DNA from: a virus
Direction: 5' to 3' (one strand)
IMG/VR virus record: IMGVR_UViG_3300043787_000133
Coordinates: 3,667 to 67,666 of that record
DNA: 64,000 nucleotides
Notes under the pieces: model-generated
The model's input: the letters and a program-made list of their open reading frames with translations, nothing else
Database searches by the model: none
What the model was told of the DNA's origin: nothing
Translations under genes and position numbers: made by a program
Shown here: piece after piece, positions 39,714-58,001 of the stretch
Position numbering within the stretch: the first letter of the stretch is position 1
Layout: each line of letters starts with the position of its first letter

Positions 39714-39714
39714 C

Positions 39715-42019: not shown

Positions 42020-42226
42020 GTGAAGCTCACGACGATCGCGCGGGCCTGGGCCGTGGAGCTGTGGCTCAACGCGCGGTACGAGCCGTGGAAGATCCTCCCG
42101 CACCCCTGCCGGCCGTACCGGGCCGCAGGAGACGGGTACCGCTGCGAGAGGTGCGGGTCAAGGTCCGCCCGGGTGCAGCGCAAGGGGCAGGCGCTCCGCG
42201 AGCGCCTGCGGAGGGAGCTGGCCTGA
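42020..42226 (+). CDS. small zinc-ribbon protein
   Basis: RBS GGGAG; H.C...CERCG. Confidence 0.5.
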   Translation: MKLTTIARAWAVELWLNARYEPWKILPHPCRPYRAAGDGYRCERCGSRSARVQRKGQALRERLRRELA

Positions 42227-42852: not shown

Positions 42853-43436
42853 AGGGCAGGGCGACGATGCGCCGGGGACTGACCGCCTGGTTCTCCGGGC
42901 TGTTCTTCGAGGTCGCCGGGTGGGCGTCACCGCCCGGCTGGGAGGCGGCGGTCTTCAGCGACGTCTCGGGGGTGCTCGTGCTCTGCGGCGTCATCACGAT
43001 GGGGGTCGTCGGCCTCTGGAACGGCATGACGCCTGCCGGGGAGGCGGAGACGGAAAACGCCGCCGCGTCCTGCCGGCGGGGACGGTGCGGGCACGGCCGC
43101 CCTGCGGGCGATGCCGCCGGGTTCATCACGGCGCTCCAGCGGGCTGTCGAAGCGGGAACGTACAGCGTCAACGGGCAGCGCTACACCGGGCTGCCACAGG
43201 TGGTGACGTACCGGGAAGAGGTCTTCTGCGAGGTGCGCGACGGAGTCCGGCTGTTCAGGGGAGCACGGGTGACCAAGCGGCGTATGCTCCCGTCCGGGTC
43301 TTCCGCCTTGTCCGCCGTTCCCCGCGTCTCGAAGAATAAGTGCGACGGGTGCGGGAGCCCGCTGGGCGTCGCCTGGTGCCCGCCGTCAACGCCTTATTTC
43401 TGCTTCAGGTGCCGACAGCGGGAAATCTTCCGGTAA
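42849..43436 (+). CDS. membrane protein with C-terminal CxxC...CxxC
   Basis: two hydrophobic segments; GTGA-coupled. Confidence 0.5.
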   Translation: MKGRATMRRGLTAWFSGLFFEVAGWASPPGWEAAVFSDVSGVLVLCGVITMGVVGLWNGMTPAGEAETENAAASCRRGRCGHGRPAGDAAGFITALQRAVEAGTYSVNGQRYTGLPQVVTYREEVFCEVRDGVRLFRGARVTKRRMLPSGSSALSAVPRVSKNKCDGCGSPLGVAWCPPSTPYFCFRCRQREIFR

Positions 43437-43505
43437 CCGCTCCGGAACCGCTGGCGCTTCTTCCCGTATTCGATAAGAACAAAAAGAAGATCTTCGGAGG
43501 ATAAA

Positions 43506-43778
43506 ATGACCCTGGCAGCCGTTGAGGACATCGAGGTGCCCGCCGGGCACGGGCTCATGAGCACCCTGGACCGATCAGGGGACGTCCGGCACATGTGGGA
43601 CAGCGGCAACGAGGACGAGGTGGAGGCGGCGCGTGCGCTGTTCAACCGCCTCACCAGGGACGGCGGCCACATCGCCTACAAGGCGGTCGGCAAGCGCGGC
43701 GCGCAGGGCGAGGTGATCCGCGAGTTCGACCCGGCCGCCGAGCGGATCATCCTGGTCAAGCAGCTCGTGGGCGGCTGA
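43506..43778 (+). CDS. small conserved protein ending in Gly-Gly
   Basis: RBS GGAGG; LD.SGD...WD...DEV.AAR..F...EFDP.AERII....LVGG. Confidence 0.8.
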   Translation: MTLAAVEDIEVPAGHGLMSTLDRSGDVRHMWDSGNEDEVEAARALFNRLTRDGGHIAYKAVGKRGAQGEVIREFDPAAERIILVKQLVGG

Positions 43779-43779
43779 C

Positions 43780-44598
43780 GTGCCCGCGTCACTGGCAGCG
43801 GTGGCGCAGCAGCTCGCGGCTCCGCCAGCGGGAACGCTGGCGGAGCTTGCTGCTGTCCAGCCGCAGAAGCGCGAGGCGTTCGACGCGGGCGCGTCCGGGT
43901 GGGTCACGTGGAACGCCGACTACACCACGGCGCTCTACACCGCCACGACTTCGAACACCGCCTACATCGAGCCGGCCTGGGGCTCGTGGAACATCACCTA
44001 CACCGTGACCAGCGGCAACACGCTGGTCTACGACGCGAACTCGAATGTCGCGATCCCGTCGGGCGGCTCGCTCACCGTCACCACGCCCCAGGGGTCGTAC
44101 TGGAACGAGCAGGCGCAGGAGACCGGGGACCAGCGCGCGGCACGCGAGGAGCGCGAGCAGCAGGTGCAGGCGGACTGGCAGCGGCGGTACGAAGAGCAGG
44201 AGCGCGAGCGGCAGGCGGTGCGGGACCGCGCCCTGGAGCTGCTGCGGTCGCTGCTCACCGACGGGCAGTGGGCCAGCTACCAGGAGAAAGGCTGGTTCGA
44301 GGTCAGGGGGAAGAGCGGCCGGCGCTGGCGCGTCCGCAACCGTGGCCAGTCCGGGAACATCGACCTGATGCCGGAGATCGGCGAGGAGCGCGACGCCACG
44401 TACTGCGCTCACCCGCCGGGCGACCTGCCCGACGCCGACGCGCACGCCGCGCAGATGCTGGCGCTGGTCACCGACGACGAGGCGTTCCTGCGGGTCGCCA
44501 ACCGGTACTGGAGACGTCCTCCGGGCGACGACCCCGGCGCCATCGCGCAGGAGCGCGTTCAAGCGCGCCGCGAGCCCTGGGTACAGGAGGCCGCCTAG
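43780..44598 (+). CDS. uncharacterised protein with coiled coil and C-terminal CxHP...D domain
   Basis: RA.ELL.SLL...Q...Y...GWF.V.G.SG...YCAHP...D..AQML.L..D...FL..AN. Confidence 0.75.
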   Translation: MPASLAAVAQQLAAPPAGTLAELAAVQPQKREAFDAGASGWVTWNADYTTALYTATTSNTAYIEPAWGSWNITYTVTSGNTLVYDANSNVAIPSGGSLTVTTPQGSYWNEQAQETGDQRAAREEREQQVQADWQRRYEEQERERQAVRDRALELLRSLLTDGQWASYQEKGWFEVRGKSGRRWRVRNRGQSGNIDLMPEIGEERDATYCAHPPGDLPDADAHAAQMLALVTDDEAFLRVANRYWRRPPGDDPGAIAQERVQARREPWVQEAA

Positions 44599-44621
44599 TT
44601 CGGGCAATTCCCGTTGTTCTT

Positions 44622-44638
44622 TATCAAGAAAGCCTGTA
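44622..44638 (-). promoter_or_regulatory. 17-bp phage motif, inverted, inside plus-strand promoter TTGTTC-17-TATTGT
   Basis: TATCAAGAAAGCCTGTA. Confidence 0.8.
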
Positions 44639-44736
44639 TTGTTGGGCCAGCTAGCACGACCGAGCCCAGGCAGCGCCTGGCAGCCCACGGGAGGGTCAGG
44701 CCTCCCGTGGGCACTCACGCAGAAGGCGGCCACCTG

Positions 44737-45381
44737 ATGAACCTGCACCTGACCCCGCAGCCCCGCCCGGCCAGCAGCGACCCCGGCACCGACAAGGCCG
44801 CCGGCTGGTGGTGGCGCGCCACCGTGCTCCTCACCGCGCTGTTCCTCGGCCTGCGGCTGGCAGGCATCACCTCCTGGCAGTGGTGGGCGGTGCTCCTGCC
44901 GGCGGAAGTCCTTATCGGGGCGCTGCTCCTGGCGCTCCTCATGGTCATCCCGTGGGCGTTCATGAGGTGGGCTTCCGGGCAGCCACGCGCGTTAGACGGG
45001 CAGCGAAACTGGCTGCTGCGGACAAACCTCGCACGAGGGGGCATACAGCACCACGTGCGCACAGTAATACACATCAGGACACAACGGAACATGAAAATAC
45101 GACCTGGAACGGGAAGGAACGACATGGCAGGGGGTAGCCCCGACGCGCCCACCGAGCGCTTCAGGAGGCTCACCAGGGCCCTGGAGGTGCCGGTGTGGCT
45201 CCAAGGGCTCGAACACCTCCTCCAGGCCGTCCAGGGGGCCTCCTGCGCCCGCTGCGGGGGGCGCATCGAGAACCTGTCCCAGGGGCACTACGGCAGTGCC
45301 TGCCTCGTCACGTGGACCGAGGAGAGGTTCCACTTCTGCTGCCCGGGAGACGCCCCGGGCTGCGAGCTGCAAGCGCCCTGA
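44737..45381 (+). CDS. membrane protein (possibly two genes in one frame; internal RBS and ATG at 45124)
   Basis: L.L.G.T.W.WW.VLLP two-TM motif; C-terminal Cys/His cluster. Confidence 0.5.
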   Translation: MNLHLTPQPRPASSDPGTDKAAGWWWRATVLLTALFLGLRLAGITSWQWWAVLLPAEVLIGALLLALLMVIPWAFMRWASGQPRALDGQRNWLLRTNLARGGIQHHVRTVIHIRTQRNMKIRPGTGRNDMAGGSPDAPTERFRRLTRALEVPVWLQGLEHLLQAVQGASCARCGGRIENLSQGHYGSACLVTWTEERFHFCCPGDAPGCELQAP

Positions 45382-45451
45382 GACGGGTGCCCGGCACGGC
45401 ACCCGCCAGGACAACAAAAGGGAACAGAGCGGAACAAGGAAGAAGGCCGCA

Positions 45452-46324
45452 ATGACAATGCACAGCCAGTGGGAAGATATCACCCCGAGCCGGGCGCGCA
45501 CCGACCTCGTGACCGCCAACTGCGGCCGTCCGGTGAGCGCGTCCCTGGTCGAGAAGTACGCCCGCGACATGGAGAACTCCCGGTGGCACGACTCACCGGA
45601 AGGCCCCATCTACGACACTCACAAGATCCTGCGCGACGCCCAGCACAGGTACCTCGCCGTCATCAAGGCATCCCAGGCGCTCCTGGAGAGGGGCGTCATC
45701 GAGGCCGAGGACGAGTTCTCGGTCCGGATGTGGGTAACCAGGGACGCGCCCGAGGACGTGTTCCCGTTCCTCAACATCGGCCTCAACCGGACGGCCGCGA
45801 ACCAGCTCTACATCGCCGGGTACGGCAACAGCGCCACCACCCTCGCCGCGATCTGCCGCCGCGTCGTCATGTGGGAGGCGGGCCACCCCACCGGATACGC
45901 TTACCGGCCCACCCGAGCGGAGATCCTCGAAGTCCTGATGCCGGTCGAGGCCTCCCCGGCGCGCACCGCGCGCATCCTGGAGGCGGCCGAGTACGCCCGG
46001 ACGTGGAAGATGTACGACATCTCCCCCGCCACGGCCGGGTTCCTCTACTGGGTGGTCACCGGCAGGAACCACGACGAGGGCCTCGACTTCATGGAGAAGG
46101 TCCGCACGGGCGCGGACATCGGCCAGGCGCACCCCGTGACCCTGCTGCGCAAGCGGCTCGGCGACGACAAGAGGAACGCCCTCAAGCGGGGCAGCCAGGT
46201 GAAGTCCGAGATGGTCATCTGGCTGACCATCAGGGCGTGGAACGCCGTGCGGCTGGACGAGAAGATCACCAAGCTCCAGGTGCCTGAGAAGCTCTCCGAC
46301 AAGACGTTCATCAGGCCCCGCTAG
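45452..46324 (+). CDS. ParB-like N-terminal domain protein
   Basis: ITP..A...L..N..RP......YARDM...W.....I......L.D(A)QHR..A. Confidence 0.7.
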   Translation: MTMHSQWEDITPSRARTDLVTANCGRPVSASLVEKYARDMENSRWHDSPEGPIYDTHKILRDAQHRYLAVIKASQALLERGVIEAEDEFSVRMWVTRDAPEDVFPFLNIGLNRTAANQLYIAGYGNSATTLAAICRRVVMWEAGHPTGYAYRPTRAEILEVLMPVEASPARTARILEAAEYARTWKMYDISPATAGFLYWVVTGRNHDEGLDFMEKVRTGADIGQAHPVTLLRKRLGDDKRNALKRGSQVKSEMVIWLTIRAWNAVRLDEKITKLQVPEKLSDKTFIRPR

Positions 46325-46443
46325 CATCGGACGGGCGTGCCCCCTTCGAGGGGAGGGCGCGCCCAGCGGGGCCTCGCGAACGCCACACCGAGAGGCCCCG
46401 CGCCGTTTCCCGGGAACATGACCCAAGGGGAGAGGACTGCCTC

Positions 46444-46725
46444 ATGCAGGCAAGAGGGAACGCGCCGGAGCGTGCCAGCGGCACGGCGCGGTACGGGCTG
46501 AGGTGGCGCGCCAGGGACGCGGCACGGCTGGCCCGCTTCCGGCTGGCACGCGCCGGCATCGCGGAGATCATGGGCGTCTACTGGATGGGCGCCGGGCCGC
46601 TGCTGTTCGCCGCGTCGTGGGCGAGCGGCCCGCTGGACGCCGGGGCGTACGTGCCAGGACCGGTGATGTTCCTGGCGGGAGCCGCGCTGGTCGCGGCGGC
46701 ACGGCTGCGGGGGTGGCGCAGGTGA
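46444..46725 (+). CDS. small membrane protein
   Basis: RBS GAGG; two hydrophobic segments. Confidence 0.55.
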   Translation: MQARGNAPERASGTARYGLRWRARDAARLARFRLARAGIAEIMGVYWMGAGPLLFAASWASGPLDAGAYVPGPVMFLAGAALVAAARLRGWRR

Positions 46726-47078
46726 GCCGTACCGCGCCGCGTGCCGCGCAGTGGCGCAAGGAGGCGAAGCCGATCTGGCGCGCACCGGGCCGTACCGCGT
46801 GCCTCGGCGAGGACACCAGCCTGTTCTACAAGGGCGAGCAGGAACGTGCCGCAGCGCGCCAGGTACGGGTCAGGAAGGCCAAGGGGCTGTGCCAGGCGTG
46901 CCGGTTCCGGGCCGAGTGCCTGGAGGCGGCGATGGAGGAGGAGAAGGACGGCGGCGGCCGGTACGGCATCAGGGGCAGCCTCACCGAGGAGGAGCGCAGG
47001 CAGCTCCAGGTAAGCCGCACCCTGAAGGCGAGGAACGAGCGCAAGCGGGCGGAGAGGGCAGCGGAGGAGGCCGCCTGA
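46722..47078 (+). CDS. whiB: WhiB family transcription factor
   Basis: four Cys (AC...LF...AK.LCQAC.....C), GIRG.LT..ER turn. Confidence 0.85.
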   Translation: MSRTAPRAAQWRKEAKPIWRAPGRTACLGEDTSLFYKGEQERAAARQVRVRKAKGLCQACRFRAECLEAAMEEEKDGGGRYGIRGSLTEEERRQLQVSRTLKARNERKRAERAAEEAA

Positions 47079-47092
47079 AAAGCCTTCCTCAA

Positions 47093-47109
47093 TACAAGGT
47101 TTATTGATA
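47093..47109 (+). promoter_or_regulatory. 17-bp phage motif variant in promoter
   Basis: TACAAGGTTTATTGATA, -10 TAATCT, followed by perfect palindrome 47117-47142. Confidence 0.65.
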
Positions 47110-47211
47110 ATCTCTAAAGGGCGGCCCGCGCGGGCCGCCCTTCAGCCGGAAGATCACCCCCGAGCAGGCCCAGGAGATCTTCGACCACCACGACGACCCC
47201 GAGGAAGACGA

Positions 47212-47760
47212 ATGACCAAGCGCTGCGACAACGCGAGCGTGGGCGTGCTCGCCGAGCGGAAGGGGCGCTGGCTGTTCGTCTGGCGCAACACCTTCCCGTT
47301 CAGCGTCGCCCCCGTGTCGGGCCACGTGTTCGACGAGCACCGCTGCTACGACGAGGCGGCCCGCGCCGAGATGCGCGAGGAGGCCGGGCTCGAAGTGGAG
47401 AGCCTGTACCTCACGCCGGCCGGAGGGTGGCGTCCCAACAGGTGCAGGCGCGAGCCCGGGCCGGCGGGCACCGGCCACCTGTGGGAGGTCTACACGGCCA
47501 CGGTGAGCGGCGAGCTGGCCCCCTCGCAGCGCGAGGTGAAGCAGGCCCGCTGGCTGGGCCACGCCCAGGTGCAGCTCCTGGCGAACCGCACCATGCTGTA
47601 CGCGCAGAACCGCGTCCCTGAGGACGAGTGGCGGGACTCGCCCGGCATCGAGCCGGTGTGGGTGGGATTCCTGGCCGACCTGGACCTGGTCCGCATGCCC
47701 GTGGAGAACCTGGACCTGGTAGCGCGCCACGCGGCCGAGGGAAGGCCGCTGGTCTTATGA
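47212..47760 (+). CDS. NUDIX hydrolase
   Basis: GH.......EAARAEMREEAGL Nudix box. Confidence 0.85.
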   Translation: MTKRCDNASVGVLAERKGRWLFVWRNTFPFSVAPVSGHVFDEHRCYDEAARAEMREEAGLEVESLYLTPAGGWRPNRCRREPGPAGTGHLWEVYTATVSGELAPSQREVKQARWLGHAQVQLLANRTMLYAQNRVPEDEWRDSPGIEPVWVGFLADLDLVRMPVENLDLVARHAAEGRPLVL

Positions 47761-47984
47761 GCCTGCGCGATTCCGAGGTCATGGACATCGGCGACCTACG
47801 GGAGAATCTCACCGAGATCACCGAGGTGGGCACCTGGGTGCTGAACGGCGGGCGCCTCAGCCCGGACCGCAAGGTGCTGCTGTGCGTGCACGGCCACTAC
47901 TTCCCGCTGGAGCGCGTGAGCATCACCAGCGCGGAGGGCTCGTTCGTCCTGGTGCTCGGCAGCGACACGTCCCTGGCGTTCTGA
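47757..47984 (+). CDS. hypothetical protein
   Basis: ATGA-coupled. Confidence 0.55.
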   Translation: MSLRDSEVMDIGDLRENLTEITEVGTWVLNGGRLSPDRKVLLCVHGHYFPLERVSITSAEGSFVLVLGSDTSLAF

Positions 47985-48181
47985 TGGCCCGCTCGCACTC
48001 CGTCTACTTGGTCCTGGACCCGGGGCTGCCGCCTGCCGCCTTCACGGTCAAGCACGAGCTGGAGAGCTTCCTGAACGGGACGCCCGACCCGGACGGCAGG
48101 CAGCTCTGGCGCTGCCGCGACGGTCACCCGGAGTTGTACCCGGCTGTTCTCCTGGACCCTGAAGCACTTCAGCCAAAGTAG
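47984..48181 (+). CDS. hypothetical protein (AFTVKHEL motif)
   Basis: TGATG-coupled. Confidence 0.6.
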   Translation: MARSHSVYLVLDPGLPPAAFTVKHELESFLNGTPDPDGRQLWRCRDGHPELYPAVLLDPEALQPK

Positions 48182-48189
48182 TTGGCGAT

Positions 48190-48206
48190 TATCAAGAAAG
48201 CCTATA
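48190..48206 (-). promoter_or_regulatory. 17-bp phage motif, inverted, inside plus-strand promoter TTGGCG-17-TATTGT
   Basis: TATCAAGAAAGCCTATA. Confidence 0.8.
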
Positions 48207-48247
48207 TTGTTTGTCCTGCAAGGAAACGAGCGCTACAGGAGGACCTG

Positions 48248-48625
48248 ATGGCACACCAGATCGTCTGCAACTCGAAGTGGGGCATGCAGCCTAAGCACAC
48301 ACATCCCAGCGCCGAACTGGTGCGGGCCTGCTACGAGGCCAAGCGGGACGTCCAGGCGGGCATCGCCGTCTGGCCGTGCTCCTGGCTCGCGCAGGAGGGC
48401 TTCACCGAGGATGGCGTCCCCGTTATCGTCGAGTGCGGCCTCCCCACGCGGTTCACCGACGACAAGGGCTCCTACGCCTGCATCGGCGGCCACGACCACG
48501 TACCAGCCGAAGTGCGCTTCGAGCAGGGCTGGGACTACGCGGAGGACGACGACGAGGCCCGGCGGCTCGCCCAGGCGGGCACCCGGCCCGTCCAGGTGAA
48601 CGGCGACTCCTGGATCTGGTCATGA
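48248..48625 (+). CDS. Cys/His-containing hypothetical protein
   Basis: RBS AGGAGG. Confidence 0.7.
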   Translation: MAHQIVCNSKWGMQPKHTHPSAELVRACYEAKRDVQAGIAVWPCSWLAQEGFTEDGVPVIVECGLPTRFTDDKGSYACIGGHDHVPAEVRFEQGWDYAEDDDEARRLAQAGTRPVQVNGDSWIWS

Positions 48626-48909
48626 ACATGGTCAGCCCCGAGGTGATGAAGGCCCACCGTGCCGCCTGGTACGTGTGGGCCGGGGGCGTGAAGATGCGCC
48701 GCAAGGCCACGATGCGCGGCTCCCGGGGTTACGACGTCACCTGCTCGTGCGGGGACTTCGAGACGAAGACCGGCGGGGCCACCCGCCAGTACGTCGAAAA
48801 CGAGCTTTGGTTCCACAGATACCAGGCGCAGGAGGCATCCGCTCCTCCACTATTCCATCGTGACCAGGAGAGACGCCCCGCGCTGCCCGTTGTGCCAGAA
48901 GTCCTTTAA
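48622..48909 (+). CDS. hypothetical protein (YDVTCSCG..ETKTGG...H)
   Basis: ATGA-coupled. Confidence 0.65.
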   Translation: MNMVSPEVMKAHRAAWYVWAGGVKMRRKATMRGSRGYDVTCSCGDFETKTGGATRQYVENELWFHRYQAQEASAPPLFHRDQERRPALPVVPEVL

Positions 48910-48992
48910 AGGCTGGTTTCGTACCGCTTTGCACTTTTACCTCATTCACCACTACAGCTACCAGGTCAAGGGAAAGGAGGGGCTGAGAGAAG

Positions 48993-49382
48993 ATGCCACG
49001 GACCGCAGGCCCGTTCGAGAAGAACGGGATCAGGCCCCGCAGCCCGGACGTGTCCCGCGTCGCCAGGACGGAGGGAGCGCGCCAGGTAGTCGCTTACCTG
49101 GAGCGCGAGGGCGTCCTGGACGGCATGAGCTGGGAGTCGCTCGGCGTGCCTGACCGCGAGACGTGGGTCAGGGCGATCACCGAAGTCTTCACCACCGCTA
49201 ACCGCGAGGCAGCCAAGGCCGCGCTCGCCGAGCTGGCCGAGTGGGAAGAGCTGGCCATGATCCTGCCGTGCCGCCGCTGCGGGGCGGACGAGGAAGAGCC
49301 GTGCCGCGACCTGCGGACCAACGTCATCACCCACATCAAGCACCCGCACGCCGACCGGATGGAAGACATGGAGGCAGCCTGA
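48993..49382 (+). CDS. protein with C-terminal phage zinc finger
   Basis: CRRCGA..EEPC...H.DR. Confidence 0.7.
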   Translation: MPRTAGPFEKNGIRPRSPDVSRVARTEGARQVVAYLEREGVLDGMSWESLGVPDRETWVRAITEVFTTANREAAKAALAELAEWEELAMILPCRRCGADEEEPCRDLRTNVITHIKHPHADRMEDMEAA

Positions 49383-49639
49383 TGGCATCAGCCATTCCAC
49401 TGGAATCGTCCCGCTACGACGGGGACGGCACCCTCACCCTGCACTTCGACTGCCCTGGATGCCACCAGGTCAACGAGGTCGCCGGGATAGACCCCGAACG
49501 CTACATGACCTGGCGCAGCGGGCGCGGGCCGTCCGTCGGCGGGGCGTTCCCCGAGCTGAGCGCGGCGGACCGCGAGGCGCTCATGACGGGCTACCACGAA
49601 AAGTGCTTCGACGATCTGTTCGCCGGGGATGACGAGTGA
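49382..49639 (+). CDS. hypothetical protein
   Basis: CPGC...AFP.LS..DRE.L.TG.H..C.D.LF. Confidence 0.7.
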   Translation: MASAIPLESSRYDGDGTLTLHFDCPGCHQVNEVAGIDPERYMTWRSGRGPSVGGAFPELSAADREALMTGYHEKCFDDLFAGDDE

Positions 49640-50070
49640 ACCGCGAGGAGTTGACCGAGCGCGACGCGCACCTGCTCGAAGAGACGCGCCAGGTGGTGCT
49701 GTCCGCCCCGGCGGACATCCCGCGCAACCCGGTGTGGGGCCAGGACTACGATCCCCTGGCGATCCTCTCCAACCCGCGCTCCTACCCCGAGCACACCGAG
49801 ATCGCACTGGTAAACGTGCGCATCGCAATGCACCCGGAGGAGCACTGGTCCAAGTGCGCCGACTGCGGGCGCGTCTTCCTCGCCGACGATGAGACCCCGG
49901 GCGAGACCGTGTGCTCGCCCGAGTGCTGGAACTTCTACGCCCGCTACATGGCGGCGGAGGTGGGCTGCCCGCTCAGCACCTTCACGATGCTGGACGAGAG
50001 CCCGTCGGAGCCAGCGCCCTCCTACGGCGGCGACCGCCCGGAGGAAGGCCGCTACGGGCGCGACCTCTAA
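49636..50070 (+). CDS. hypothetical protein with CxxC...CSxxC
   Basis: GTGA-coupled. Confidence 0.65.
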   Translation: MNREELTERDAHLLEETRQVVLSAPADIPRNPVWGQDYDPLAILSNPRSYPEHTEIALVNVRIAMHPEEHWSKCADCGRVFLADDETPGETVCSPECWNFYARYMAAEVGCPLSTFTMLDESPSEPAPSYGGDRPEEGRYGRDL

Positions 50071-50285
50071 TGAACACCGCAGCAAACTGACGGGAAGCAG
50101 CGAGAGGGCCGTACGGGAGACCGTGCAGCCGCCTTCGGCCCACCGTCCCTGGCACCGGGTGGTTCCGGGCGGACTCCGACAAGGCCGTCACCGCCACCGT
50201 CAGGCGCACCCGCAAGGCCTACTTCGGCTGAGACCGCGAGTCCGGCCCCGTCTCCCGGGGCCGGGCTCGCCTGTAAGGAGGACCA

Positions 50286-50552
50286 GTGAACTACAAGCCG
50301 TTCGGCTACCAGGATGAGCCGCTGACGTGCCTGTGGTGCGGCAGGAAGCTCTCGCACCACACGGTCATCGACGAGGACCGGGAGAAGGCCGCCAGGGCGG
50401 CTGGCATGGACGCCGACGCGGTGTACCAGCACTCCCTGGTCCGGGCGGAGAAGGCCGGCCCCTACCAGGATGACTCGTTCTGCACTCTCTCCTGCGGTTA
50501 CCTGTTCGGCCTGCGCCTGGCTGAACTCGGTAGCCGGCTAGAGAGCAAGTAA
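50286..50552 (+). CDS. zinc-finger-like hypothetical protein
   Basis: RBS AAGGAGG; CLWCG...FCTLSC. Confidence 0.7.
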   Translation: MNYKPFGYQDEPLTCLWCGRKLSHHTVIDEDREKAARAAGMDADAVYQHSLVRAEKAGPYQDDSFCTLSCGYLFGLRLAELGSRLESK

Positions 50553-50569
50553 TATCAAGAAAACCTGTA
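50553..50569 (-). promoter_or_regulatory. 17-bp phage motif, inverted, abutting consensus -10 TATAAT (plus strand)
   Basis: TATCAAGAAAACCTGTA-TAAT. Confidence 0.8.
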
Positions 50570-50582
50570 TAATGGAGGGACT

Positions 50583-50915
50583 ATGAGCGACCACTACCAC
50601 TACGCCAGCGAGGTCCAGGGCGCGGCCGACGACAACCACGGCCACAGCCCCCGGGACATCGGGGCCGCCGAGGAGCACGACCTGAACATGCTCGAACGGC
50701 GCGTCCTGCGCGCCGAAGCCGGTGTGGCGGAGCTGGAGCGCAGCGCCGGCAGCGAGGTCAACGGGCTGAAGCGCCGGGTCGCAGAGCTGGAGGCGGGCTA
50801 CCTCGAACTCCAGGGCCAGTTCGCCCAGCTCCAGCGCATGGTTCTCGAAGCTGCCGGCAACAGCACGGCGAGGCTCAACCAGTTCGCCGACCTACTAGAA
50901 GGAAGGATCGCCTGA
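50583..50915 (+). CDS. coiled-coil protein with His-rich N-terminus
   Basis: ORF after motif promoter. Confidence 0.7.
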   Translation: MSDHYHYASEVQGAADDNHGHSPRDIGAAEEHDLNMLERRVLRAEAGVAELERSAGSEVNGLKRRVAELEAGYLELQGQFAQLQRMVLEAAGNSTARLNQFADLLEGRIA

Positions 50916-51082
50916 TGCCCGGATGGATTCCGCGCTGGCACCCGTTCGTGTGGATCTTCGTGATCGTCATGATCTACATGATCTGGACGGACCCGGCCGA
51001 GTGGGGCCAGAAGGCCGCCGGCGTACTCCACCTGATCCCCGAGGCGGCCAGCCGCATCGGGATCTTCATCCAGCACCTGTAG
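50915..51082 (+). CDS. small membrane protein
   Basis: TGATG-coupled; FVWIFVIVMIYMIW. Confidence 0.6.
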   Translation: MPGWIPRWHPFVWIFVIVMIYMIWTDPAEWGQKAAGVLHLIPEAASRIGIFIQHL

Positions 51083-51088
51083 CCCACC

Positions 51089-51664
51089 ATGGCTGCCAAC
51101 GGGAGGCACCGCCCTCCGTCGCGCACCCTCGGCCGCGTCGCGCTGCCGGGGGTCTTCGCGTTCTTCACCTGGCTGGCGGAGAACACCCCCGCCGGCCTGT
51201 GGGGTTTCCTCGGCCTGCTCGGCACGGGGCTGCTGGTCAGCCTCTTCTACCCGCTGATCGTCCTCATGGCGATCGAGGCACCCGGCGGCCTGGTGCCGTG
51301 GCAGTGGCGCGCCTGGTGGCGCAAGGGCGAGGCGCGCCGGCCGTCCATCCGGAAGCGGCTGCGGCGCGTCGTGTACGCCGCCGACGGCTACGCCTGCGCC
51401 TACTGCCGCAAGAGCCACGACATCCAGCTCGACCACATGCGGCCCTGGTCACTGGGCGGCCGGACGTCGTTCTTCAACTCGATGACCCTCTGCAGCACCT
51501 GCAACCGGATCAAGTCGAACTACTGGCGCTTTAGGGACGGGCGGGTCACCTACCGCTCGTCCGACGGCTACCACTACCCGGCGAAGGCCGCCGAGATCCT
51601 CGCCTTCGAGATGCGCCACCGCTGGAGCCCCTGGCGGTTCATCCGCGCCGCGATTGCCCTGTAG
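51089..51664 (+). CDS. HNH endonuclease with N-terminal transmembrane segments
   Basis: CAYC....QLDH..PWS.GG....N...LC..CN..K. Confidence 0.85.
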   Translation: MAANGRHRPPSRTLGRVALPGVFAFFTWLAENTPAGLWGFLGLLGTGLLVSLFYPLIVLMAIEAPGGLVPWQWRAWWRKGEARRPSIRKRLRRVVYAADGYACAYCRKSHDIQLDHMRPWSLGGRTSFFNSMTLCSTCNRIKSNYWRFRDGRVTYRSSDGYHYPAKAAEILAFEMRHRWSPWRFIRAAIAL

Positions 51665-51764
51665 CGGGGTAACAACTGGGGTGCAGAACGCGCTTTGTGC
51701 GGGCGAGAGTGCTCCTGTGCCGCTATGGTCTTCCTTGCCATTGATGGACTAAGGAAGGAACTGC

Positions 51765-52712
51765 ATGAAGCTGAACCGCAGGGGTGCCCTGGGCATCGCG
51801 GCAGCGGCGATTGTCCTGGCAGGCGGCGGTGCTGCCTTCGCGGCCACCAGCGCGGACCCGCCCTCCTCCGTCACCGCCGTGACGCAGGTCCAGAACGACG
51901 GCGACTCCGGCAACGGCGGCGGCATCTGGGCCATCGACCAGATGCACCGCACCCTGACGGTCGCGGACGCCGCCCCGAACACCGCCCCGTCCGGCTCCGT
52001 TGCCTACACGGCCACGGTCGCCGACACCGGCACCTTCACCACCGTTGCCGGGGCGCTTGACCCCAACCAGGTGATCCCCGGGCAGAGGATCGCCCACGCG
52101 GTCAGCGGGGACGTGACCTGCTCGGCCTCGTACGCGATCACCGCTCCATCCCCCACCTACGTCCTGAGCAGCCTCGCCAACGCCGGCCTGCCCGCCTCGA
52201 TCAACGACAACTTCCAGCACGTGTCCATCGGGCCGCTGTCGTTCAGCGGCTGGCCGGCTCAGGCATTCTCCTCCGAGATCCCCGCGACGGACATCAGCCA
52301 GACGCACTACAACTGCGTCTACACCACCGCAGCGGGCGAGTCCTGGACTGACTCTGACACCAACGACGACGGCAACCTGGTGCAGGACGGCAACATCACC
52401 GGCCTGCTGGCCCCGCCGCCCGTGATCATCCGCCTGTCGCACGGCCAGGGCACCGCCACCGCGCCGACCCGCGAGACCGTCTCCTTCCAGCAGTCCGGCA
52501 CGGCATCCTGGGACGAGTTCTACATCGTCGGCCCCGGACCGATCAACGGGCACAAGGGCTGGGTCAACGGGAAGGTGGGCCTGAACTTCGGCTACTACGA
52601 GGGCCTTGAGGCCAACCACGGCTACACGGTCTACTACACCCCGGTCGAGGGGCAGGGGAGCAACGTCCAGGTCCCGGACGCTCACCCTGGTGACGTGTAC
52701 TTCGTGAGCTAG
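51765..52712 (+). CDS. secreted beta-rich protein with signal peptide
   Basis: MKLNRRGAL-hydrophobic-AFA cleavage site; RBS AAGGAAGG. Confidence 0.8.
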   Translation: MKLNRRGALGIAAAAIVLAGGGAAFAATSADPPSSVTAVTQVQNDGDSGNGGGIWAIDQMHRTLTVADAAPNTAPSGSVAYTATVADTGTFTTVAGALDPNQVIPGQRIAHAVSGDVTCSASYAITAPSPTYVLSSLANAGLPASINDNFQHVSIGPLSFSGWPAQAFSSEIPATDISQTHYNCVYTTAAGESWTDSDTNDDGNLVQDGNITGLLAPPPVIIRLSHGQGTATAPTRETVSFQQSGTASWDEFYIVGPGPINGHKGWVNGKVGLNFGYYEGLEANHGYTVYYTPVEGQGSNVQVPDAHPGDVYFVS

Positions 52713-52726
52713 CCGCAGCGCCGCCG

Positions 52727-52756
52727 AGGCCCGGGTCAGCGATGACCCGGGCCTTT
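52727..52756 (+). terminator. intrinsic terminator
   Basis: AGGCCCGGGTCA-GCGA-TGACCCGGGCCT-TT. Confidence 0.8.
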
Positions 52757-52781
52757 CGCGTTGGCTGACCCCTTGTGCCAA

Positions 52782-52798
52782 TACAGCTTTTCTTGATA
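52782..52798 (+). promoter_or_regulatory. 17-bp phage motif in promoter
   Basis: exact motif, -10 TAAGCT. Confidence 0.85.
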
Positions 52799-52837
52799 AG
52801 CTCATCGTGCAAGGGAACAAGCGCTGAGGAGGAAGCA

Positions 52838-53374
52838 ATGAGCAGGAGCAGCAAGAAGTTCGCCGCTTACGTGCCGGCCACGTGCCAGGGCGGTGGCGGC
52901 ACCGAGGTTACTTTCGAGACCTCCAGCGACAAGTACCGCTACGCAGGCCTCGTGCTTCCCCTGAACGGCGGCGGCCAGTGGGACGTCGCCGTCGTTGGCT
53001 GGTCGGCTGAGTCAGTTACCTCCCGCAACCGGACGCAGGCCAACAAGCGCCTCGGCGCCTACCGGGGGCAGGCCTGGGCACTCGACCGCTACACCGGCAC
53101 CTCGATCGCCTGGGAGCACACCGCCCCGGTCGTCCGCGAGTACTTCGGGCACCACCGGGTGGCCGTCACCGCAGTCTTCTTCCCCGGGGAGGGGTGGACC
53201 GAGCGCGACTACCACGGCGGCAAGTCGCTGCTGCGCATGCTGAAGGGCGACGGCGTGACCCACGTCCGGTTCACCGGCCGGGGCACCTTCGAGGGCGAGC
53301 GCCCCGGAGTTCACGCGGCCGACTTCACCATGGACGAGCTGCTCAAGTCGATGAATGCCAGGAAGAAGTCCTGA
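52838..53374 (+). CDS. hypothetical protein
   Basis: RBS GAGGAGG. Confidence 0.75.
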   Translation: MSRSSKKFAAYVPATCQGGGGTEVTFETSSDKYRYAGLVLPLNGGGQWDVAVVGWSAESVTSRNRTQANKRLGAYRGQAWALDRYTGTSIAWEHTAPVVREYFGHHRVAVTAVFFPGEGWTERDYHGGKSLLRMLKGDGVTHVRFTGRGTFEGERPGVHAADFTMDELLKSMNARKKS

Positions 53375-53458
53375 TGGACTGAAGGGGACACAGGCCAGGT
53401 TCCGGGTTATATTGACCCGAGAGGCACAACGCTCCCCAAGTAGTACCTCTGTGGCACA

Positions 53459-53495
53459 GAGAAGCCGCCCGGTGCCCCCGTCCGGGCGGCTTCTC
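53459..53495 (+). terminator. hairpin terminator
   Basis: GAGAAGCCGCCCGG...CCGGGCGGCTTCTC. Confidence 0.7.
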
Positions 53496-53625
53496 ACGTT
53501 CCTAGATCGTTGACCGGGAAATAGATGCAGGTCAATGATCGTAGGCGGTAAGCGAGCGCTTGACGGGCGCGCCGATGGGGCGCCCCTGGTGCCGGACCAG
53601 TGTCCCGAGGGGCACCGACATTCAA

Positions 53626-53692
53626 GAAAGTTGTCTTGGTGCTTGACAACTTTCAGTGCGCGACATAAAGTTGTCTTTATACAAGACAACTT
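53626..53692 (+). promoter_or_regulatory. promoter TTGACA-17-TAAAGT overlapped by two palindromic operators
   Basis: GAAAGTTGTC-N9-GACAACTTTC 53626-53654 and AAGTTGTC-N9-GACAACTT 53668-53692. Confidence 0.85.
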
Positions 53693-53703
53693 ATGGAGGG
53701 CAC

Positions 53704-53904
53704 GTGGACACGAACTACCGCTACGACAGCAACGAGGACTACGCCCAGGCCTACGGCTACACCAGTGCGGCCGAGTACGCCGCAGCGCGCGCCGCCCACG
53801 ACGGCGCAGGGACCGGCCACAACCCGGCGCTTTGCGGCGACCGGTGCCCGTGCAAGGCCCGCCGGGACAACAGCGCCGCCCAGTCGGTCAGCCGTGCAGC
53901 CTGA
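53704..53904 (+). CDS. small hypothetical protein (H...C...CPC)
   Basis: RBS GGAGG before GTG. Confidence 0.65.
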   Translation: MDTNYRYDSNEDYAQAYGYTSAAEYAAARAAHDGAGTGHNPALCGDRCPCKARRDNSAAQSVSRAA

Positions 53905-54169
53905 GCAGCAGCCCGCGACGGCCGCCCGGACCCGCTACCAGGGCCGGGCGGCCGTCGCCGTGATACTCGGCGCTACCCCCGACCTGCTCGCGCACTGGAT
54001 GCGCCGCCACCCGGAAGGCATGCCCGAGCCTGACGCAGAAGAGGAGAGGCCCGGCGGCGACCTCGTCCCGCTCTGGCTGCCCGGGCGCGACGCCGAATGG
54101 CACGCGTGGCGCGCATCGTTCCCCGGCCGCACAGGACGGCCACGCAAGGGAGACACTTCAGCCGACTGA
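53894..54169 (+). CDS. HTH DNA-binding protein with AT-hook-like GRPRK tail
   Basis: Y.G.AAVA.ILG.....L..W.RR....P.PD...LW....EW..W....PGR.GRPRK. Confidence 0.7.
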   Translation: MQPEQQPATAARTRYQGRAAVAVILGATPDLLAHWMRRHPEGMPEPDAEEERPGGDLVPLWLPGRDAEWHAWRASFPGRTGRPRKGDTSAD

Positions 54170-54210
54170 TGCCAGGCTCAATGACCTGCCCGGATTTCCC
54201 GGTCAACGAT

Positions 54211-55239
54211 CTAGAGCGCGATCAGCGGCGCAAGCTCGGCCAGCTCGCCAGCGCCCGCCGCAGCCTCCCCGGCCCCGGCAGCCTCGCCGCCGCCGCTCAT
54301 GCCCTTCATCAGCGACCGCGCGCCCTGCCACTCCAGGGCCTTGCCCGCCGGGCCCGCGCCGCCCGAGGAACTTCCGGAAGAGCCGCTGTCGGTCATCGGG
54401 CCGTTGCCCATCACGGAGTCGGTCAGGTCAGCGCGGCGCAGGTAGCGCGAGACCACCTTGCGGCCCAGGCGCTCGCACTCGGAGGCAGGCAGCCCCGGGT
54501 TCGCCTCGGCGATCATCGCGGTCACCCGCAGCACCCGGGCGTGCACCGGGTCGCGGCTGGCCGTCGAGGACACCCCCGGCCGGCTGGTCGGCTGGCCGAC
54601 GGGAGCGACCCCGCCGCCGCCCTGCGTCCCCGCCGGGATGCTCGGGGTGAGGCCCCCGCTCCCCGACGACGGCAGGCCCATGTCCACCGACCCGTCCCCC
54701 GTGCCGACGTCCGGCGGCATGTACGGCGACATCATCATCGACTCGGGGTTCGCGTCCGCCCGCCGGCGCAGCGAGCCGGCCGCCTGCGTCACCGCGCCGG
54801 GCGTGTCCGCCCGCACCTGGGTCACCTGCGGGCTGGGGCCGCCCGGAGCGCCCATCGGCACCTCGGAGTAGCCGCCCCTGAAGTCCGGCCCCTCGTCGTG
54901 CTCGTCAGGCTTCTCCGGCCCCTGGCCGTAGCCGCCGCCGTTCAGCAGCGGCTCCAGCGAGATCACCGGGTCCGTGCCCTCAGTGAGGGCCTCGCGGTAC
55001 AGCTCGTAGCGCCTGCGCGCCGTGGCAGCCAGGTCGTCGTACTCGATCCCGTTGCGGGCCGCTATCGCCTCAAACTGCTGGCTCATGAGGGACGAGCGGT
55101 GCGCGAACTCCTCGGGGGTCCGCGCGGCGAGCAGGAAAGGGAAGACCTGCTCCATCTCCGCGTCCGCCCTGGCGATAGCCGCCTCCCGGGCGAATGAGTC
55201 GTGGTCCTCGCTGGCAATCACCCAAAGGTCGTCCGTCAT
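54211..55239 (-). CDS. putative internal virion protein
   Basis: LW..AS.D, FPFL..A....EF.HR; low-complexity Gly/Pro; ATGA-coupled. Confidence 0.7.
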   Translation of the reverse strand: MTDDLWVIASEDHDSFAREAAIARADAEMEQVFPFLLAARTPEEFAHRSSLMSQQFEAIAARNGIEYDDLAATARRRYELYREALTEGTDPVISLEPLLNGGGYGQGPEKPDEHDEGPDFRGGYSEVPMGAPGGPSPQVTQVRADTPGAVTQAAGSLRRRADANPESMMMSPYMPPDVGTGDGSVDMGLPSSGSGGLTPSIPAGTQGGGGVAPVGQPTSRPGVSSTASRDPVHARVLRVTAMIAEANPGLPASECERLGRKVVSRYLRRADLTDSVMGNGPMTDSGSSGSSSGGAGPAGKALEWQGARSLMKGMSGGGEAAGAGEAAAGAGELAELAPLIAL

Positions 55240-58001
55240 TCCCAGTCCTCCACGTTCCACGGGTTGTGAGCCAGCTCGGCAGGATCGTGATCATGAGCGA
55301 AGTCGTAGTCCTCGTGCAGGACCTGGTGCCATCCTCGCGGGTCAGGATGCCCCTGGGCCGGAAGCATGTGATCGTGCTCCAGGTGGTCTACCAGCCCTTC
55401 GCGGCTCATCATCGACACCTTCGCAAGACTAGCCCGCACCGTGCGCCGGAATGCCGCCAGGCGGTCGTTGCCGTGCGGGTCGCCCCGGTAGGCGTCGCGG
55501 TTGGTGTAGCCGCCCCGGTCAGCCGAGTTAGGCGCCGCCGGCGCAAGCGTGACGTTCTCGGGGTGCACCCCGGAGAACGTCTGCACCATCGGGCCGTCCG
55601 GCTGCGGCTGCCGCTGCGGCTGGCCCATCACGTCGTCCGGCACCACCGGGCCGCCCGGGAGCGGCGGAGCCCCCTGGTACGGCGGGGCACCGCCCGGCAC
55701 GGCCGCCTGCGACAGGCCGCCCATCGGCGGCGGCGAGCCCGGACCGTTCAGCGGGGTGGAACCCATCGGGTCGGGCGACGTGCCCGGCCCGTCGGTGATC
55801 AGGTCGGTGGACACCCCGCCCTCGGCCTGGAGGTAGGTGCTCCTGGGCGCCCGGCCGCGCGCTGCCTCGTGCCTGCGGGTGAAGTCCTGGTGCAGCATCA
55901 TCCGGCGGCTCAGCTCCGGATGGGTGCCGGAGCGCGCCATGTGCTCGGTGAACCAGCGCTGCTGCACCCCGGGGTGGTCGGTTATCCCCGCGTACAGGCC
56001 GGCCTCGAACCGCGCCGAGCCCTTCCCCGCCAGCCGCTGGCCCGGATGCCACTTACGGGCGAAAAGGTAGCCCTTGCGGAAGTCGGGGTCGTCCATCAGC
56101 GAGTCGGGGGCGAACGCGGCCGACACCCGGCGCAGCGACGAGGTCTTCCAGGTGGCGCCCGAGCGTCCCCCGGTGCCCTCGCCTTCGAGCTTCTCGTCGC
56201 CGGGAGCGCCGCTGACGTTCCGGCCGCCCGTGACGTCGTGCTGGCGCTCCAGGTTGTCCCGGGCGTCCTCCCAGGCATCCTGAGCCGAGGCGGCGCGCCG
56301 CGACGCGCGGGCCACCTGGAAGTGCTCCCTGGCCTCGTTCGAGTTCTTGAGCTGCCCGGAGTCCCCGCCCATCGAGAAGGGGACGTCCTGCGGCCCGGAG
56401 GGGCTCTGCGCGGCCCCGTAGCCCTGGGCGTAGCCCTTGACGTACGGCGAGACCGCCGAGCTGTTGTCGGCGAACAGGGGGCGCTCCCCGGCGGTCCTGT
56501 CGGCCTGCCCGGCGCTCACCCCCGCCTGGAAGTCAGGCGACTTCTCCGACATGTTCTGCGACCACGGGTCAGGCGTGGTCGCCGGGCTGCTGAACGGCTC
56601 GGCGAAGTCGTCGGTGGTCCGGTGCGGCTGCGTCCAGGTGTCCGCCTCCCGGCGCAGCGACGCGGTGGTCTGGCCGCCGTCGTCGGCGCGGTACAGGGAG
56701 TTGCTCTGCCCGTGCATGGCGCGGCCCTGGGAGTAGGCCGCCAGGTAGTGGGAGTGCAGGTCGGGACGCCCGGTCTTCTCGCCGTACTCCTGCTTCGTCA
56801 GCGGTGCGCGGCCGACCAGACCGTGGATCAGCCCGGCGGTCTGGTTCCAGCCCTCCAGGTAGCGGCGGTGCTTCTGCTTCGACGCGCCGAAGGAGTCCTT
56901 GTGCTCGGGCTGCTGGTTGTTCATCGCGTCGGCGCGGCCGAGCATGTCCGCGCCGGTCGAGGACACCTGGGCGTAGGCGGTGCGGCGCAGCATCGCCTTG
57001 TTGCGCCACCCGAAGATCGGGTCGTACTCCGTCTCGGACTCCGGCGGACGGCCGCCCCGCGACGGGTTGGTGAACCCCTCGCCGTAGGGGTCGTAGTGGG
57101 TGCCCTCGCCGGACAGGCCCGACTCGGTGCCCGGGTCGATGCCCCGGGCGAACGATGGAGCGGCAGGCCGCGACGGGCGCGGCGCGGGAGCCTGGCGGGG
57201 AGCCGGGCGCGACGGCCGGTCCGGGCGGGCGAACTCCGAGGTGGCCAGCGGCCCTTCGAGCTGGACGCGGCGGGCGAACCTGTCCGGGTTGAAGGTGCGG
57301 TTCCCGTTGTAGTTGAAGGCCGACCCGGCGTGCATCGCGCCGGCGATCGTCGGCACGACGTGGTTGTGGAAGTCCTCGTCGGAGATCGCCCCGGAGTACC
57401 GCGTCCCGCGCAGCATGTCCGCAACGGCGTCGTGGTGGCCCTGGGTGTACCCGGGATGGCGGCCCCGGCTCCGCCAGGAGTAGGAGCCCGGGTCGGTGGC
57501 CGCGCCGATGAACTTGTCCCGGTCGAACGGGCCGAGGCCGTTCGAGCCGGTGCCCGGCATCTGGCGGCCGAACGACTCGGCGACCGGCCCGCGCAGGTGC
57601 TCGGGCAGCGTGGAGATCGTCGCGGCCAGGTCCTCGTAGTGCTTGCGCGACCAGGCGACCGCCGTCACCTGGAAGGCCCCGGTGCGCGGCTGCGGGCCGT
57701 CCGGCCCGGTGGACCACTGCTGGCTGAACGTGGACTGCGGCGAGTTGTCGCCGACGGGGAACGCCACCCCGACGGGCAGCTCGTCGCCCTCAGGGTCAGG
57801 GTTGTTGCTGGGGTCAGTGTGCTGCTGGATCTGCGGGAGCCCCGAGGCCGCCTGGGAGCGCATCGGGCGGCCGTCGGTGGACCACCAGTCGTGGTCGGTG
57901 TCGCCCTCGGGCGTCGAGTCGTCGTCCCCGTCGCGGTCAGGGTCGGAGGCGAGCGCCCACATCAGGCCCTCGCGCACCCGGGGGTATGCGGGCTGCGCCA
58001 T
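55236..58001 (-). CDS. large modular putative internal virion protein
   Basis: 921-aa GC3-rich ORF; DPDRDGDDD...GDTDHD motif; DFRKGY.FA.KW. Confidence 0.75.
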   Translation of the reverse strand: MAQPAYPRVREGLMWALASDPDRDGDDDSTPEGDTDHDWWSTDGRPMRSQAASGLPQIQQHTDPSNNPDPEGDELPVGVAFPVGDNSPQSTFSQQWSTGPDGPQPRTGAFQVTAVAWSRKHYEDLAATISTLPEHLRGPVAESFGRQMPGTGSNGLGPFDRDKFIGAATDPGSYSWRSRGRHPGYTQGHHDAVADMLRGTRYSGAISDEDFHNHVVPTIAGAMHAGSAFNYNGNRTFNPDRFARRVQLEGPLATSEFARPDRPSRPAPRQAPAPRPSRPAAPSFARGIDPGTESGLSGEGTHYDPYGEGFTNPSRGGRPPESETEYDPIFGWRNKAMLRRTAYAQVSSTGADMLGRADAMNNQQPEHKDSFGASKQKHRRYLEGWNQTAGLIHGLVGRAPLTKQEYGEKTGRPDLHSHYLAAYSQGRAMHGQSNSLYRADDGGQTTASLRREADTWTQPHRTTDDFAEPFSSPATTPDPWSQNMSEKSPDFQAGVSAGQADRTAGERPLFADNSSAVSPYVKGYAQGYGAAQSPSGPQDVPFSMGGDSGQLKNSNEAREHFQVARASRRAASAQDAWEDARDNLERQHDVTGGRNVSGAPGDEKLEGEGTGGRSGATWKTSSLRRVSAAFAPDSLMDDPDFRKGYLFARKWHPGQRLAGKGSARFEAGLYAGITDHPGVQQRWFTEHMARSGTHPELSRRMMLHQDFTRRHEAARGRAPRSTYLQAEGGVSTDLITDGPGTSPDPMGSTPLNGPGSPPPMGGLSQAAVPGGAPPYQGAPPLPGGPVVPDDVMGQPQRQPQPDGPMVQTFSGVHPENVTLAPAAPNSADRGGYTNRDAYRGDPHGNDRLAAFRRTVRASLAKVSMMSREGLVDHLEHDHMLPAQGHPDPRGWHQVLHEDYDFAHDHDPAELAHNPWNVEDWE

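Follow-up and report, generated by a model that had tools for sequence, protein, structure and literature searches.

A probable transposase-less IS982-family cassette at the stop codon of a soil actinomycete phage gene

This study concerns a 713-bp element in the DNA of a tailed phage. The DNA that was analyzed, called the window here, is a 64-kb stretch corresponding to positions 3667-67666 of a 67.7-kb IMG/VR record (IMGVR_UViG_3300043787_000133), and that record is 43% complete. Our conclusion, which we hold with considerable confidence, is that window positions 53502-54214 are a derivative of an IS982-family insertion sequence (IS) that lacks a transposase, that is, a mobile insertion cassette (MIC), and that it was transposed into a CTAG at the stop codon of a phage gene. 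In the mechanism we propose, the parent element would have had the order terminal inverted repeat (IR), transposase gene, divergent promoter with operators, variable open reading frame (ORF), gene for a helix-turn-helix (HTH) protein, and IR. An internal deletion would have taken all but approximately 19 of the transposase codons, and insertion would have occurred into a CTAG formed by a TAG stop codon, 6 nt from a terminator common to two convergent operons. Within the element, a sigma-70-type promoter would drive the first ORF (orf66) and the overlapping HTH gene as one autonomous transcription unit. A symmetric dimer of the HTH protein would bind two operators, O1 (over the −35 hexamer) and O2 (between the −10 hexamer and the ribosome-binding site), and repress its own operon.

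Terminal repeats and the parent insertion sequence

The element is bounded by a 37-nt IR, the arms of which are 86% complementary and lie 639 nt apart. The outer 21 nt of the two arms are identical. This 21-mer, CTAGATCGTTGACCGGGAAAT, was found twice in the window when up to three mismatches were allowed, once on each strand, and twice in the whole 67.7-kb record; there were no matches in 100 shuffled sequences. Each end of the element also contains TGACC-N14-GGTCA, a partial palindrome of approximately 26 bp, and the same motif is part of the IS ends in full-length IS982-family copies. A preliminary description of this DNA, made from the sequence, had proposed both a 713-bp unit bounded by inverted repeats at these positions and the palindrome within each end, and our searches recovered both.

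The IR 18-mer GATCGTTGACCGGGAAAT was scanned as an exact match against viral and genome collections, and it was present in 2 viral and 70 genome stretches. Most of these 72 matches were single chance occurrences in unrelated phyla. In approximately 22 of the 72 (21 by an automated filter), however, the match extended further, through a shared subterminal sequence (..GGGCAGGTCAGTGATCGTAGGCGATCAGGGAGCGCTTGAC). All of the extended stretches were from actinomycetes or were unclassified, and the named ones included metagenome-assembled genomes (MAGs) of the Streptosporangiaceae. Read on the opposite strand, the subterminal sequence forms the 3′ end of a gene, with a product ending in ...VKRSLIAYDH and then a stop codon. 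Eleven copies had an inverted partner end; these were 1065-1078 bp long and contained a single ORF of approximately 300 aa. The transposase of locus L007 passed the NCBIfam IS982 equivalog NF033520 with 131.8 bits (cut-off 130; E 3.1e-38), and tblastn gave transposase matches in 20 of the 22 family loci. In two MAGs, the 18-mer was present on three contigs each. Because the copies of the 18-mer have transposase 3′ ends and inverted partners, and because they include one that passes NF033520 and are present several times in single MAGs, we conclude that the window repeats are those that terminate an IS982-family insertion sequence of approximately 1.07 kb, present in multiple copies in soil actinomycetes. 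The right IR was compared with the left-end and right-end types of the parent IS. It matched one end of parent copy L052 at 94.6% over 37 nt and the other at 84.4% over 32 nt; the corresponding values for the two ends of L007 were 91.9% and 91.2%.

The left end of the element also holds a relic of the transposase gene (Table 1). In tblastn searches with five transposase queries, the relic aligned with residues 300-323 of L052 and with residues 294-307 of the other four, and the codons aligning to the window element were the last 14-25 of the transposase. In blastn comparisons with the 3′ ends of five full-length copies, it was 78-85% identical over 75-82 nt. The window element and the full IS have in common their two ends and 38 further nt at the left end only, and the interior of the element (approximately 600 bp) is unrelated to the transposase gene. 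No IS982 transposase was found in the 67.7-kb record. With approximately 19 C-terminal transposase codons remaining, the window copy cannot move itself, and further movement would thus need a cognate transposase supplied in trans from a full-length copy in the host. Soil runs X2 and X8 contain contigs in which this IR continues into a full transposase 3′ end, and the presence of full-length IS ends in the same soil runs would allow mobilization of the window element in trans. These results agree with two earlier proposals, that the unit contains no transposase and that it is a non-autonomous transposon.

Insertion site in the phage genome

The 336-aa protein encoded by the gene on the right flank of the element had relatives in four viral contigs, two of which (L075 and L076) were collinear with the window on both sides of the element, with 68-89% DNA identity. 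L076 is a complete genome of 161,740 bp with direct terminal repeats. In a three-way alignment, L075 and L076 had a single gap of approximately 710 nt exactly at the element. In both of these relatives the equivalent of the window terminator hairpin directly precedes the stop codon of the convergent gene, which follows within 7-8 nt; the hairpin at 53459-53495 predates the insertion. The complete relative L076 contained no IR, HTH gene, or operator pattern. The empty site that the preliminary description had suggested looking for in relatives was thus found in two related phages.

The C-terminal codons of the convergent gene line up between the window (...PLIAL and stop) and L076 (...PLLAL and stop), which indicates that the stop codon predates the insertion. 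As read from this alignment, the ancestor of the window must have had CTAGAG, which contains CTAG, at the insertion point. Among the IS982-family copies, the near ends were preceded by CTA at 15 of 21 loci and the paired far ends were followed by TAG in 14 of 16, with one more ending after TA at the edge of its locus. No direct repeat longer than CTAG was seen at these copies. On the basis of the CTAG flanks of the copies and the empty site in the phages, we concluded that insertion is CTAG-specific. This is the target that had been proposed from the window alone, and CTAG does flank nearly all of the IS copies; the proposal that the right CTAG holds the stop codon of the minus-strand gene was also correct (Table 1).

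CTAG is scarce in the window and strongly avoided: there are 26 sites in 64 kb, where base composition predicts 177 and a Markov estimate 72. We dropped the idea that most of these CTAG sites would be stop codons, since only 5 of the 26 coincided with a TAG stop, as judged by crude gene calls.

Contigs from soil runs X2, X5, X6, and X8 that covered positions 52900-54800 contained no empty-site joint and no inversion joint, although assemblies hide rare variants. One X2 contig of 2455 nt covers the whole stretch with three differences.

The preliminary description had offered an invertible segment as a second possibility, in which the IRs would be crossover sites and a site-specific invertase would flip the cassette to switch expression. 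The repeats are inverted, each with its partial palindrome of approximately 26 bp, and a recombinase gene could be encoded in the part of the genome that is missing from the 43%-complete record. Nevertheless, the repeats are IS982-family ends adjoining a transposase relic. Neither a serine recombinase of the resolvase/invertase type (PF00239) nor a tyrosine recombinase (PF00589) was found in the 67.7-kb record, and the two relatives lack the whole segment, having it in neither orientation, with the complete relative lacking the IR as well. We therefore consider inversion highly improbable.

Genes in the window are on the plus strand from approximately 36200 to 53374 and on the minus strand from 64000 down to 54211. 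The two blocks converge at 53374/54211, and the element is therefore placed where they meet. No virion proteins are encoded in the minus-strand block to the right of the element; its products include UDG and an RNA-ligase/Arr-like protein. This position had been described earlier as an early/late strand switch; a junction of convergent genes with one hairpin terminator is present, and the labels early and late were not established. A location at the junction of transcription units might be expected of a native phage regulatory locus, with the IRs being binding sites that loop or insulate a phage regulator pair and no mobile element being involved. We give this explanation virtually no credence, since two syntenic relatives, including the complete L076, lack the unit and since the IRs of the unit match a multi-copy bacterial IS.

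In L075, the homologue of the 178-aa gene is followed, before the terminator, by approximately 770 nt with two small ORFs (5140-5745). Neither ORF is present in the window or in L076, which makes this intergenic junction a hotspot where genes are gained and lost.

The window belongs to a large (approximately 160-kb) phage of soil actinomycetes. The phage is a high-GC tailed phage, with PHROGs matches to a portal protein (29783-32071), a major head protein (7961-8989), and a minor tail protein (23130-24467). Pfam matches among the window proteins include an HNH endonuclease, a NUDIX protein, and UDG, among others. A blastn search of annotated phages and plasmids with positions 52700-55300 as the query had no matches. 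A 535-aa phage protein (62388-63995, minus strand) combines 2′-5′ RNA ligase/LigT-like and Arr-type (rifampin ADP-ribosyltransferase-like) domains. The structural region contains two giant minus-strand ORFs at 11484-15662 (1392 aa) and 17909-22102 (1397 aa), the first of which has a head-maturation-protease-like N-terminus and a DUF7178 domain.

Cargo genes and related loci

A promoter, a 66-aa ORF, and an HTH gene had been named as the cargo, and all three are present; the one correction is to the start of the HTH gene, which is a GTG that overlaps the stop codon of the first ORF (Table 1). Three promoter-like sites were found in the region, compared with 0.1 expected from shuffles. The operator palindrome pattern had two matches in the window, compared with 0.03 expected, and both were in the cassette, which fits the earlier view of a self-contained regulatory unit. 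Dual operators were present in all six sources for which the upstream region was available (the window, L085, L086, L087, L088, and L092). The start points of the two conserved operators are separated by 39-41 nt; the first embeds the −35 hexamer, and the second is flanked by the −10 hexamer on one side and the ribosome-binding site on the other.

The HTH protein had 41 relatives with 44-76% identity, almost all of them metagenomic, and it matched phrog_597 ('DNA binding protein') with E 1.1e-4. Its structural model, with a predicted local distance difference test score (pLDDT) of 78.6, has the order helix, helix, beta-hairpin, helix (H-H-E-E-H). Weak fold matches were obtained to MerR-type DNA-binding domains, those of CarH, BldC, BmrR, and gpNu1 (Foldseek E 0.15-0.8). 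MerR_1 was matched in 4 of 37 relatives, with a best E of 0.093, and HTH_23 also in a few relatives; MerR_1 was present in 15-28% of members in the neighbor clusters of the HTH protein in the Atlas. A weak sequence lead was P22 Cro (E 0.77). The two-copy model of the HTH protein scored 0.60, compared with 0.01 for the best of three controls. Of 30 proteins solved as pairs, 20 reached this mark, as did 1 of 23 solved as single chains. In the dimer model, contact agreement between runs was at least 90%, the pLDDT of the partner was 80, and the interface was symmetric, formed by residues 12-23 and 46-63. The modeling thus supports a homodimer, and we infer that the HTH protein is a dimeric autorepressor acting on O1 and O2.

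For orf66, a word-based search returned the window protein only, and an exhaustive search returned seven relatives of 53-111 aa (E 3.8e-13 to 3.2e-06). The family consensus is ..YSYDSY.DYAEAYGY.SA.EY.KARASYDD.GTGHHP.LCS.RCPCK, in which H39, C44, and C48 are invariant, and the His/Cys motif resembles a metal-binding knuckle. No Pfam, PHROG, NCBIfam, or PADLOC family was matched by orf66, and an alignment scan of genome and viral contigs for orf66 gave no locus. An orf66 homologue (P0057) and an HTH homologue (P0029) are each on four contigs, the longest of which is 17,527 nt; the matching records suggest that the orf66-HTH pair recurs together elsewhere.

Sixteen HTH-bearing metagenome loci were retrieved. 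In L087, an IS982-type IR lies after the HTH gene, and none is present between the operators and the transposase. The N-terminus of an IS982 transposase lies approximately 60 nt beyond the operators, on the opposite strand and reading away from them, with 76% identity over 51 aa. The HTH-to-IR junction is contiguous in L087, L090, and L091, as it is in the window, with 75-78% DNA identity. The arrangement in L087, together with the junction common to L087, L090, and L091, indicates that a cargo-carrying IS982 variant existed, and the window element is this form minus the transposase.

The ORF between the operators and the HTH gene differs by locus, with lengths of 66, 131, 114, 135, and 66 aa, and it is absent in L085. 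These variable first genes matched no Pfam or PADLOC family. Their variability bears on another alternative, that the cargo works as a type II toxin-antitoxin (TA) or abortive-infection pair, orf66 being the toxin and the HTH protein an antitoxin that regulates its own expression. The organization is reminiscent of such a pair: two small overlapping genes are preceded by a promoter that has palindromic operators, and the HTH gene comes second, as in toxin-first TA operons. However, neither protein matched a TA or defense family in Pfam, NCBIfam, or PADLOC. Moreover, the HTH protein is 60-76% identical across loci, whereas each locus has a different, unrelated gene upstream of the HTH gene or, in the case of L085, none, which is not expected for an antitoxin that neutralizes one specific partner. 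We regard the TA-like function suggested in the preliminary description as improbable.

Other copies with IS982-type ends carried other cargo. L050 is 1328 bp long and contains an alpha/beta hydrolase gene, its transposase being reduced to fragments. L067 (2073 bp) has an extra 294-aa ORF without a Pfam family, L022 (2772 bp) contains a frame of 444 aa that resembles an IS110-type transposase, and L039 has approximately 880 extra bp. These four copies are in genome contigs, and all are flanked by CTAG...CTAG. L003, a 1382-bp unit bounded by IS982 ends in a viral contig of 7,200 nt from IMG/VR, contains the C-terminal half of the transposase and, on the other strand, an unrelated gene of approximately 250 aa, the product of which looks like an HTH protein.

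The HTH module was also found beside other types of genes. In L085 it has a ParA-like ATPase as a neighbor and in L088 an IstB/DnaC-like ATPase; the L090 fragment keeps its IR and adjoins a Tn3-type transposase. An unrelated viral contig of 42,555 nt (L104, the same as L092) contains dual operators, a 135-aa Cys-rich ORF, and the HTH gene at 2440-3210. This module is a GC-rich island (0.68, compared with 0.56-0.61 in the flanks) just upstream of the large terminase gene; its HTH gene has an in-frame TAG near the start, and no recognizable IS982 IRs were present. In representative genomes the HTH gene was found at four loci of the Streptosporangiaceae, none with IS ends, and one of these is a deleted pseudogene. 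We conclude that the HTH module circulates among mobile elements.

A more speculative proposal, and one we think unlikely, is that the dual operators and dimeric HTH protein form a portable self-repressing chassis with a swappable first gene, captured by an IS982 lineage beside the transposase promoter. The repressor would then tune transposition and shuttle small effectors between actinomycete mobile elements and unrelated phages, and orf66 would be a payload that benefits the phage, for example in anti-defense or superinfection exclusion.

Several observations weigh against the identification of the element as an IS982-derived MIC with a self-repressed cargo. The ends (CTAGATCG...; CTAGATCGTTGACC... 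in all copies) do not have the conserved 5′-AC-3′ termini given for IS982 in the cited sections of a review of the family (PMC7335449), which makes this an atypical IS982 subgroup by that criterion, and the parent transposase clears the NCBIfam cut-off narrowly. At the empty sites the relatives read CTAC and TTAC rather than CTAG; the ancestral CTAG is therefore deduced from the codon alignment and not observed. Because the CTAG target is a palindrome, target duplications of 0, 2 (TA), or 4 (CTAG) bp are indistinguishable. In L085, L086, L088, and L092 the HTH module occurs without IS ends, and a search for terminal IRs around these four modules gave nothing convincing; for this reason we consider the module to be captured cargo and not an intrinsic part of the IS. 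The fold matches of the HTH protein are all weak (Foldseek E of at least 0.15), the window protein passes no Pfam family, and both operator binding and repression by it are deductions.

Finally, no second copy of the exact 713-bp cassette was found in viral, genome, and metagenome scans, which did return related, non-identical forms (L087, L090, and L091), so that movement of the transposase-less form itself is not demonstrated. This observation is pertinent to decay in situ, in which a complete cargo-carrying IS982 element would have entered the phage and lost its transposase afterward, leaving the 713-bp unit as a fossil that never moved as such and perhaps never will. In keeping with decay, the same deletion junction was found in no other copy in the IR, HTH, and orf66 scans of the collections, and the parent architecture with a transposase exists (L087). 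On the other hand, the outer 21 nt of the IRs are still identical, so that the ends remain usable, and the transposase-deleted derivatives L050 and L003 indicate that such forms arise repeatedly; neither observation decides the order of events. Decay in situ is a serious possibility, though one we lean against.

Table 1. Positions of the element, its cargo, and the flanking features in the window
Feature	Position	Strand	Details
Flanking phage gene, 178 aa	52838..53374	+	On the other side of the element from the 336-aa gene
Hairpin terminator common to both convergent units	53459..53495		In the flank, outside the element; perfect 14-bp stem, −31.9 kcal/mol
Left CTAG	53502..53505		Target-site copy or extreme end of the element
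Left terminal IR	53502..53538	+	Transposase-3′ end of the parent IS982-family element; holds the subterminal TGACC-N14-GGTCA; from repeat search and parent comparison
IS982-family transposase relic	53532..53591	-	Approximately the last 19 codons and stop (...IGAPVKRSLTAYDH*); from translation, tblastn, and blastn
Candidate operator O1	53628..53652		25-bp palindrome AAGTTGTC-N9-GACAACTT; right arm holds the −35 TTGACA
Sigma-70-like promoter	53643..53671	+	TTGACA-17-TAAAGT; 10 of 12 positions match
Candidate operator O2	53668..53692		Perfect 10+5+10 palindrome (25 bp), between the −10 hexamer and the ribosome-binding site
Shine-Dalgarno sequence	53695..53700	+	GGAGGG, 3 nt before GTG 53704; read from sequence
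orf66, 66 aa	53704..53904	+	From GTG 53704; small, acidic, Tyr-rich; C-terminal GH(H/N)PxLCxxRCPCK His/Cys motif; GC content at third codon positions (GC3) 0.90
HTH gene, 91 aa	53894..54169	+	Putative MerR-like winged-HTH protein with C-terminal GRTGRPRK tail; GTG 53894 start overlaps the orf66 stop; GC3 0.83
Right terminal IR	54178..54214	-	From repeat search; HTH-to-IR junction homologous in L087, L090, and L091
Right CTAG	54211..54214		CTA at 54211-54213, read on the minus strand, gives the TAG stop of the flanking gene
Flanking phage gene, 336 aa	54211..55221	-	From GTG 55221 (frame 54211-55221/55260); its end is the insertion target

Known systems and significance

MIC231 of the Bacillus cereus group is the classic example of an MIC. 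Like the window element, MICs have IS-type terminal IRs, no transposase of their own, and passenger genes unrelated to transposition, and mobilization in trans by a cognate IS is presumed for them, as it is here. Transporter IS (tIS) contain a transposase together with passenger genes, as does the L087-type parent. Both are categories of ISfinder/ISsaga in the sections cited here (PMC3129680, PMC9330008). The window element differs from the MICs and tIS in being derived from IS982 and resident in a phage genome, and its passenger is a putatively self-regulating chassis of promoter, operator, and HTH gene and not a resistance or metabolic gene.

Phage morons are autonomous transcription units inserted between phage genes. 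The window element resembles them in having its own promoter and regulator, in lying between two phage operons, and in being absent from close relatives; unlike morons, it has a delivery vehicle that is identifiable as IS ends.

The cited sections of the 2020 IS982 review describe elements of approximately 1 kb with 5′-AC-3′ ends and variable direct repeats (DR), and a DR of 0 is listed for the actinobacterial members ISCef2 and ISCef3 (PMC7335449). The parent copies of the window element are like the family, including ISCef2 and ISCef3, in their length of approximately 1.07 kb, in having one NF033520 transposase of approximately 300 aa, and in having no direct repeats beyond the ends. They differ in having ends that begin CTAGATCG... 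instead of 5′-AC-3′ and in their CTAG flanks, and the window copy differs further in having no transposase. Among phage elements, MPME1 and MPME2 of mycobacteriophages, the best known of the small mobile elements in actinophages, are approximately 439 bp long and have an unexplained 6-bp addition next to IR-L (PMC3029335); size, ends, and content all set them apart from the window element. The MPMEs are, like the window element, very small, and they produce insertion polymorphisms between close actinobacteriophages; they are not derived from IS982 and have no sequence relationship to the window element, and the sections cited report no regulator cassette in them (PMC3029335).

The underlying mechanisms, as represented by MICs, transporter IS, and morons, are already known, and the window element is a clear new example of them. 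It indicates that a bacterial IS can deliver a ready-made, putatively self-regulated cassette into a soil actinophage of approximately 160 kb without gene damage: CTAG specificity placed the element on a stop codon, and the stop was preserved. For the IS982 family, cargo-carrying and transposase-less derivatives are added to the forms described; the main text of the 2020 review, in which the terms 'MITE', 'passenger', and 'CTAG' are absent, is silent on such forms (PMC7335449). The small HTH and operator family occurs in plasmid-, transposon-, and phage-like contexts of Streptosporangiaceae-type actinomycetes, and it could serve as a compact autoregulated expression module.

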